Below are positions 24,840 to 25,793 of a DNA stretch of 64,000 nt, in pieces. Every line of letters starts with the position of its first letter. Within the stretch, counting starts at the first letter, position 1. The stretch is from positions 36,766,001 to 36,830,000 of the forward strand of contig OZ024741.1 in assembly GCA_964016885.1 (NCBI GenBank), written 5' to 3'. Below the pieces are notes generated by a model. That model did no database searches. It worked only from the letters and a program-made list of their open reading frames with translations, and had not been told where the DNA came from. Position numbers and translations under genes: made by a program. This DNA is from Eledone cirrhosa (taxonomy: Eukaryota).

Positions 24840-24933
24840 ACCCCGACGGCTGAGCTCAAGCCGTTTCGACGGCTAATTCTGGACTGAATGAAAATTTATT
24901 CTGGTATTTAAATAGCCGAGCTTATCAAGGGGT
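24840..24933 (-). ncRNA. Hammerhead ribozyme, U3:A8 core variant (inverted copy)
   Basis: Near-identical reverse complement of 25700-25793. Confidence 0.7.
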
Positions 24934-25699
24934 AATTCCATATATGGTCAAAGAGATAATCACCAGGATTGGTCACATCACAAGTTAGTAGTAAATCTGT
25001 GATGGCAAATTGGTGGGGGAAGGGGTAGCTGAACCTGCGGGTAGGAGAAAAAGGGAGAGGGGGTGGAGTAGACCCATTCATGCGTTGGTGGTGCCGGCTA
25101 CAGCTGGGTGTGAGGTCAAAGGAGATACTGGGGAGGGGAAGGGGGAGGAAGTCGAAACGGTAAGTAGAACAATGAAGGGTAAAACTATAAAAAGTACTGA
25201 GAGAGAAAAAAAAAAAAAATATATAAGCAAAGTCTGGTTACTAAGACTTAAGTCTCGCTATTGCTAGGCTAAAGAAATACATAAATAAATAAACAAATAA
25301 TTGAATAAAAGAATAGATAAATATATATATAATGAAGAATAAAAAATAAATAAAAATAAACTAGGTGGGACGGAAATAAAGGGACCCTTATACGAGGTAT
25401 AAGTGCGTGTATCGTACGGTGACGGGTCAACAAAGGTGGGGGGGCCAAAATACTAAAGAGACTACCACAAAATAATAAAGGTTTCTACCCCAATCACAGG
25501 GCCAGCAACCACCCAGAGCAAGAAAGTATTAATTATCCGTTCTTTACTTTTACTTTTACTTTTACTTCGTACGATCTTTCATGTAGCTTGTATAAGACTT
25601 TTTGTTTTGTGGCGGTACCCTTTTTTGCCATCACAGATTTACTACTAACTTGTGATGTGACCAATCCTGGTGATTATCTCTTTGACCATATATGGAATT

Positions 25700-25793
25700 A
25701 CCCCTTGATAAGCTCGGCTATTTAAATACCAGAATAAATTTTCATTCAGTCCAGAATTAGCCGTCGAAACGGCTTGAGCTCAGCCGTCGGGGT
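25700..25793 (+). ncRNA. Hammerhead ribozyme, U3:A8 core variant
   Basis: ACCCC-TTGATAA-G..CGGCTA...TAGCCG.C-GAAA-CGGCT-loop-AGCCG-TC/GGGGT: stems I, II and III all form, GUC site. Confidence 0.72.

Follow-up and report, generated by a model that had tools for sequence, protein, structure and literature searches.

The closest described relatives of the ribozyme analysed here are natural hammerheads whose core pair 3:8 is U-A, and the hammerheads of Penelope-like retrotransposons (PLEs). The papers cited for both were accessible in part, and our statements hold for those parts. U3-A8 covariation occurs in several natural hammerheads for which activity in vitro is described (Perreault et al. 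2011, PMC3088659), and about 1,300 U3-A8 motifs have been reported from Schistosoma PLEs, where pairs on opposite strands lie 100-700 bp from each other (Cervera & De la Pena 2014, PMC4209133). An initial annotation of the present DNA had singled out the U3:A8 core; having been published in 2011, and for PLEs in 2014, this core is in itself already known and adds little. In one hammerhead subjected to deep mutagenesis, only a C-G/G-C swap rescued the 3:8 pair (PMC9901934); the activity of a U3:A8 core is therefore context-dependent, which counts against assuming it. The hammerhead of PAc (Poseidon, Anolis) needs protein in order to cleave, and insertion in vitro still takes place when this ribozyme is mutated (Frangieh et al. 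2024, PMC11167929). Among endonuclease-bearing PLEs, in which the role of the ribozyme is still called unclear, the Hydra clade is defined by the motifs DKT, RW[K/R], a CxCx5C linker, CxxC and CxH (PMC8557442). PLE insertions commonly show truncated copies in inverted orientation and a tail on one side (PMC8557442, PMC11167929).

The window, by which we mean the whole 64,000-nucleotide stretch of Eledone cirrhosa DNA that was analysed, holds a U3:A8 hammerhead motif in each of two inverted arms. Both motifs were read base for base, and every part listed in the initial annotation was found in its place in both arms (Table 1). The architecture is that of type I, with three helices around the core and an open-ended helix I, and the core residues U4 G5 A6, A9, G12 A13 A14, A15.1:U16.1 and H17 are present. 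The Watson-Crick 3:8 pair is U3:A8 in the window's copies and is absent in ~1,560 related C3·A8 copies. G10.1:C11.1 is separated from the main stem II by a 2x1 internal loop, and the same CGGCU/AGCCG helix is common to stems II and III. A loose type I descriptor, accepting any Watson-Crick 3:8 pair, matched only the two motif sites in the window and nothing in 30 block-shuffled windows; with the three helices, the core and the 3:8 pair, this bears out the assignment to the hammerhead type. As had been foreseen for standard searches, Rfam returned no hammerhead match for the motif, either at the gathering threshold or at E ≤ 10. We ascribe this to the limits of the models (long loop II, variant core), and a match is not a defining feature. 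CUGANGA descriptors and Rfam overlook thousands of motifs in this one genome.

Table 1. Features of the insertion, its host intron and the hammerhead motif (positions of the window)
Feature	Position	Strand	Remarks
ATP13A3 intron hosting the insertion	2340..44454	+	approximate bounds, tblastn exons
(TA)n-rich microsatellite, left target flank	24531..24824		
Inverted 5'-truncated 3' UTR/pLTR copy	24825..25528	-	92% to natural copy L033 3693-4414
Identical hammerhead motif, inverted copy	24840..24933	-	predicted cut after 24845, minus strand
Junction piece, derived from a more upstream part of the 3' UTR	25555..25622	+	94% to L033 3570-3637
Sense 5'-truncated pLTR copy, long 3' end	25624..25886	+	
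Type I hammerhead motif, U3:A8 core	25700..25793	+	predicted cut after 25788
Stem I	25700-25704 / 25789-25793	+	ACCCC / GGGGT
Core U3 U4 G5 A6 U7 A8 A9	25705-25711	+	
G10.1:C11.1	25712 : 25765	+	
Stem II	25715-25720 / 25758-25763	+	CGGCTA / TAGCCG
Loop II	25721-25757	+	37 nt, closed by CGGCTA/TAGCCG
GAAA	25766-25769	+	
Stem III	25769:25787 (A:T) plus CGGCT/AGCCG	+	6 bp
Stem III loop		+	7-nt TGAGCTC, contains GAGCTC palindrome
GUC site	25786-25788	+	
78-nt tail of the sense copy	25809..25886	+	3' ends of fragments at 25808 and 25886
(TA)n-rich microsatellite, right target flank	25887..26212		
Third copy, begins inside loop II	26213..26369	+	without the 5' strand of stem I and the UUGAUAA core

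The arms (24825-25009 and 25624-25808) are identical at 184 of 185 nt. The inverted copy stops at the short 3' end, 20 nt beyond the cut site, and a deletion or a template jump links the junction piece to the sense copy. Both arms belong to one insertion of the ordinary kind, inverted and 5'-truncated. As products of a single event they are not independent evidence for the motif.

The carrier was sought in the species' own genome (3.0 Gb), where a DNA search gave 2,451 candidates; the 40 that were scored are 99-100% identical. Ribozyme copies 3.5-3.6 kb apart flank an ORF that has RT and, at its C terminus, GIY-YIG. At one locus (L338) the tandem order is ribozyme–ORF–ribozyme: three ribozymes are spaced 3,543 bp from one another, and both ORFs, of 717 and 719 aa, are intact; the 717-aa ORF has YRDD and VIYQC..YIG, and the ORFs of this locus carry the Hydra motifs DKT, RWK (as RWR), CxCx5C, CxxC and CxH. 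Compared by eye, the element's protein is collinear with Hydra-1_Obim, motif for motif, and in translations inspected by eye no CCHH motif was noticed in the endonuclease. Of 8,000 candidates that were scored, 1,052 are homologues of the element ORF, with identities of 40-55% for the best; a Pfam search of the ORF at L031 gave no match. Since the AUG lies ~190 nt 3' of the cut site, the ribozyme is non-coding. The 5'-truncated inverted copy, the one-sided tail and the (TA)n insertion agree with what is known of PLEs. From this organisation we class the motif as the terminal-repeat (pLTR) hammerhead of a Hydra-clade PLE. A non-LTR retrozyme, which consists of short non-coding head-to-tail repeats with one hammerhead per unit (retrozyme preprint, partly accessible), was rejected, the tandem unit here being 3.5 kb and coding and the window's arms inverted.

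Further copies and relatives were seen along the way. Five ribozyme copies lie head-to-tail, ~3,543 bp apart, at G000:C1:91473241-91487431, which we take for a young tandem insertion because both units that were read have intact ORFs. A different Hydra-like ORF, 38% identical to that of the octopus element, adjoins a full-length copy (L031 68-1639, minus strand). The window itself contains a second, unrelated, broken Penelope-like RT at 33161-35186 (+), with a weak GIY-YIG match (E=0.004).

Copy numbers were obtained as exact-pattern counts across the genome, with reversed-pattern controls of 0. Approximately 6,800 copies have an intact 5' core, and position 10.2 is C in 2,128 copies, U in 2,476 and a purine in 2,228. 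The C class, which was counted fully, comprises 1,064 copies with U3:A8 (703 + 361, the latter having the window's exact core), 1,020 with C3·A8 and 23 with a base other than A at position 8 (2 C3:G8, 11 U3·G8); the 21 left by subtraction have A or G at position 3. The U class includes ~539 C3·A8 copies, counted with a slightly looser pattern, and in the purine class U3:A8 was present in 98/100 among the matches listed. The mismatched C3·A8 core thus makes up ~1,560 of ~6,800 copies, about a fifth. All five C3·A8 loci that were fetched have RT-endonuclease remnants, 87-94% identical over long matches.

With C3:G8 in 2 of 2,128 copies and U3:A8 in 1,064, the consensus is not CUGAUGA. U3:A8 is therefore a family trait, the state of the family majority and of a whole subfamily (the 361 copies with the window's exact core), as had been proposed, and copy-specific decay from CUGAUGA is rejected. 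Conversely, the idea that the 3:8 pair is strictly required is weakened by the ~1,560 C3·A8 copies. Two further explanations were discarded. When a canonical C3:G8 parent subfamily was sought within the main family, the 86 matches were mostly truncation junctions, and the ~10 scattered C3:G8 copies of the main family resemble decay from C3·A8. A-to-I editing that activates C3·A8 cores, edited RNAs being cut and not copied, would bear on the frequency of G8, found in 2/1,025 C3 copies vs 11/1,082 U3 copies (p=0.02, post hoc); the idea is not supported, because at least 6 C3:G8 copies stand beside 539 C3·A8 copies in an older class. Separately, the summed contig depth over window 25750-25886 is ~25-40x greater for the ribozyme's 3' half than for its 5' core, a hint that truncation within loop II affects most copies; contig depth is not a copy number.

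Conservation follows the fold. When seven subfamily majority sequences are compared, variation affects 3 of 46 positions in the core and stems vs 12 of 37 in loop II (Fisher p=0.003, indicative only because the seven classes are related). All subfamilies agree in the single-stranded core bases U4 G5 A6 A9 and G12 A13 A14 and in the GUC site, position 3 is restricted to C or U at that level, all four bases occur at position 7, and the GAGCUC palindrome of loop III is conserved. A sister family of 340 copies (loci L293-L329) has a longer stem II, CAGCUAGA/UCUAGCUG, and U3:A8 in 86/100 among the matches listed. Three stem II pairs are changed on both sides between the sister and main families, and in 16 hand-picked copies 91.7% of the cells are paired vs 23-50% in slid controls. 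This stem II covariation is mainly one family split, not many independent events. As the stems are conserved and covary, the fold is likely under selection. Three sister copies have C3:G8 (CTGAGGA, L323-L325) and share diagnostic bases with one U3·G8 copy (TTGAGGA, L326), which may be a U·G wobble intermediate. Immediately upstream of stem I (window 25685-25696), a near-palindromic CCATATATGG segment is kept between the main and sister families, and its flank diverges.

The order of the subfamilies was studied in trees built with positions 3, 7 and 8 masked; the main tree has 63 rows, taken from 132 full-length of 173 copies, and short alignments and template switching limit what such trees can tell. 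Several branches with strong support place the window's U3:A8 lineage (29 rows, 100/97) within C3·A8 copies, on whose far side there is a second U3:A8 lineage. A single U3 clade is rejected with all 63 rows (p-AU 5e-47), after removal of 7 odd or revertant rows (7e-56) and after removal of 2 further rows (9e-5), when two changes suffice; at least one C3-to-U3 change is therefore needed under any root. When the sister family serves as outgroup (57 of 207 copies, 217 columns), the tree is rooted among C3·A8 copies with moderate support (83-86), from which two gains of U3:A8 follow. Median divergence from the class majority, with 127 of 150 rows kept, is 7.6% in the oldest C3·A8 class (n=4), 3.7% in the other C3·A8 class, 2.2% in the window's class and 1.2% in the youngest U3:A8 class. 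At least 500 nt of downstream ORF was found in only 6 of 280 copies, none from the sister family. Four contig runs of unrecorded kind listed no position 3 change and did not help the rooting; both 3' ends were confirmed in them. We tentatively propose, well aware that it may well be wrong, that C3·A8 sources with a crippled core made the ~1,560 copies, that two lineages independently gained U3:A8 and that the youngest also lost the competing fold described below. If true, this would count as in vivo evidence that PLEs can transpose without hammerhead cleavage, which is nevertheless still favoured, and a single scaffold would offer a natural allelic series (U:A, C·A, U·G, C:G).

Copy ends and predicted folds bear on what the ribozyme may do. 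Among 493 distinct fragments in the fetched loci, which were chosen by pattern so that the end counts are biased, the 3' end is at 25808 in 162 and at 25886 in 170; only 4 end at 25787-25789, and 4 have their 5' end at 25785-25794. Copies finish 20 or 98 nt past the cut site, from which we infer that the RT templates were uncut or religated at C17. Since stems II and III share CGGCU/AGCCG, a strand-swapped fold competes with the hammerhead. For the window's copy it is predicted to be 3.7 kcal/mol more stable, leaving hammerhead stems II and III at ~0.3 probability; for two copies of the youngest subfamily and one sister copy the hammerhead is the predicted minimum. These nearest-neighbour energies ignore tertiary contacts and Mg2+.

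On balance we lean towards regarding the pLTR hammerhead as a candidate slow, conditional self-cleaver, which would cut tandem transcripts ~190 nt upstream of the start codon, with new copies likely arising from uncut RNA. Tandem element transcripts would be trimmed by the ribozyme upstream of the ORF, and selection would keep the fold and favour the 3:8 pair without strictly requiring it. The shared helix would give an inactive alternative fold that limits cleavage, the element's protein or a partner RNA might refold this form and so bring about cleavage, and new insertions would be copied from uncut RNA. That about a fifth of the copies have a mismatched core suggests that self-cutting may be unneeded for the spread of the element. 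Against slow, conditional cleavage, the amplification of ~1,560 C3·A8 copies also fits a catalytically dead structure.

Such a structure could be kept for RT or endonuclease binding or for priming, with no useful cleavage and with U3 and C3 alternating by neutral transitions. We hold this to be unlikely, although the C3·A8 subfamilies, ~1,560 copies in total, encode RT, copies span the cut site, the hammerhead is not the predicted minimum in the window's subfamily, and the anole element inserts normally in vitro with a mutated ribozyme (PMC11167929, accessible text). Against it stand single-stranded core bases and a GUC site that are invariant beside a free position 7, a position 3 confined to C or U at the subfamily level (A or G in 21/2,128) and the C3:G8 group in the sister family.

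It appears more doubtful still that cleavage is essential and that the C3·A8 lineages cut through residual activity of a C·A wobble, in a slipped CUGA-GA register using G7, or as dimers with U3:A8 transcripts through the palindromic loop III. G7 is indeed present in 97/100 and 95/100 C3·A8 copies among the matches listed, but shared ancestry alone explains it; the GAGCUC palindrome is conserved and PLE hammerheads are reported to be active as dimers (PMC4209133, accessible part), but the 6-bp stem III can form without a dimer. In the hammerheads tested in the accessible parts of two studies, single mutations at 3 or 8 abolish activity (PMC11167929, PMC9901934).

The insertion also has a host gene. 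Eleven plus-strand exons of ATP13A3 were mapped from an octopus ATP13A3 protein, with 96% identity over a 50-aa exon, and the insertion lies between exons 2244-2339 and 44455-44589, in a ~42-kb intron. Because these flanking exons are on the plus strand, the + copy is sense to the ATP13A3 pre-mRNA, in agreement with the earlier assignment to an ATPase pre-mRNA. The complementary arm is transcribed first, 614 nt upstream, and by folding energies the hammerhead fold would cost ~145 kcal/mol in the sense RNA, with a stem pairing probability of 0.00. Pairing with the upstream arm into a 185-bp duplex would thus likely mask the ribozyme in host pre-mRNA, and its supposed relevance to that transcript is weakened. 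The inverted arrangement typical of such insertions would mask the ribozyme in host transcripts generally. As the window's copies are truncated, lack an ORF and are predicted to be locked in this duplex, they would have little effect on ATP13A3. That the + copy is an active intronic ribozyme cutting the ATP13A3 pre-mRNA and affecting the gene is very improbable: the motif is intact and in sense orientation within the intron, but its complement is made first at the predicted cost given above, and the insertion is young (its subfamily ~2% from the majority sequence) and one of thousands.

Other repeats were noted in the window. Positions 27073-29658, 37067-40491 and 50848-52195 are copies of one element, 91-98% identical over shared parts, presumably an RTE-like LINE from its protein type. 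RT-type fragments at 21905-23287 (-) and 45735-48527 (+) represent two more non-LTR retrotransposon families. A nested inverted repeat at 41222-42137 (200 nt at 92%, 162 nt at 97%) is possibly another inverted retroelement insertion or a MITE, and the ATP13A3 intron has tandem repeats at 3706-4819 (76 bp units) and 17521-18107 (45 bp units).

In our literature search, which reached few subscription papers and did not include the 2014 supplements, neither amplified C3·A8 subfamilies nor the octopus ribozyme turned up. PLE hammerhead variants are reportedly the subject of a 2017 study by Lünse. The natural variants of Perreault et al. show the same U3-A8 covariation as the octopus core; unlike for the octopus family, the accessible text gives no subfamily history and no C3·A8 variant (PMC3088659). 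The Cercyon PLEs of Schistosoma mansoni share with the octopus family a type I motif in the pLTR, U3-A8, more than 1,000 genomic copies, a long helix II, a short helix I and opposite-strand pairs 100-700 bp apart. Cercyon motifs are minimal and lack helix III, whereas in the octopus motif helix III measures 6 bp and ends in a palindromic loop of 7 nt, and loop II is 37 nt long; no C3·A8 subfamilies were seen for Cercyon in the accessible part of that paper (PMC4209133). With the Hydra clade of EN+ PLEs (Craig et al. 2021, PMC8557442, likewise accessible in part) the element has in common an RT with C-terminal GIY-YIG, the motifs DKT, RW[K/R], CxCx5C, CxxC and CxH, (TA)n targets, inverted truncated copies and a hammerhead in the repeat. 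All 25 Hydra families in File S2, however, have CUGANGA cores (C3:G8), a loop II of 3-10 nt and a short stem III, and the octopus ribozyme is unlike that of Hydra-1_Obim; the U3:A8 or C3·A8 core and the 37-nt loop II are therefore new for this list, and the 3.5-kb unit compares with at most ~3 kb in the listed families. As in PAc, the octopus ribozyme lies at the pLTR-ORF junction, two 3' ends past the cut site define a tail, and targets are AT-rich. The PAc ribozyme has C3:G8, overlaps the start codon and is followed by a 30-40 nt tail, as opposed to an AUG ~190 nt downstream and a 78-nt tail in the octopus (PMC11167929, accessible text). Beside these systems, the octopus family offers one scaffold with four 3:8 states, copy numbers for the main states, a subfamily order and intact young ORFs; what interest remains lies in this natural range of 3:8 states, through which the role of the PLE hammerhead becomes testable.
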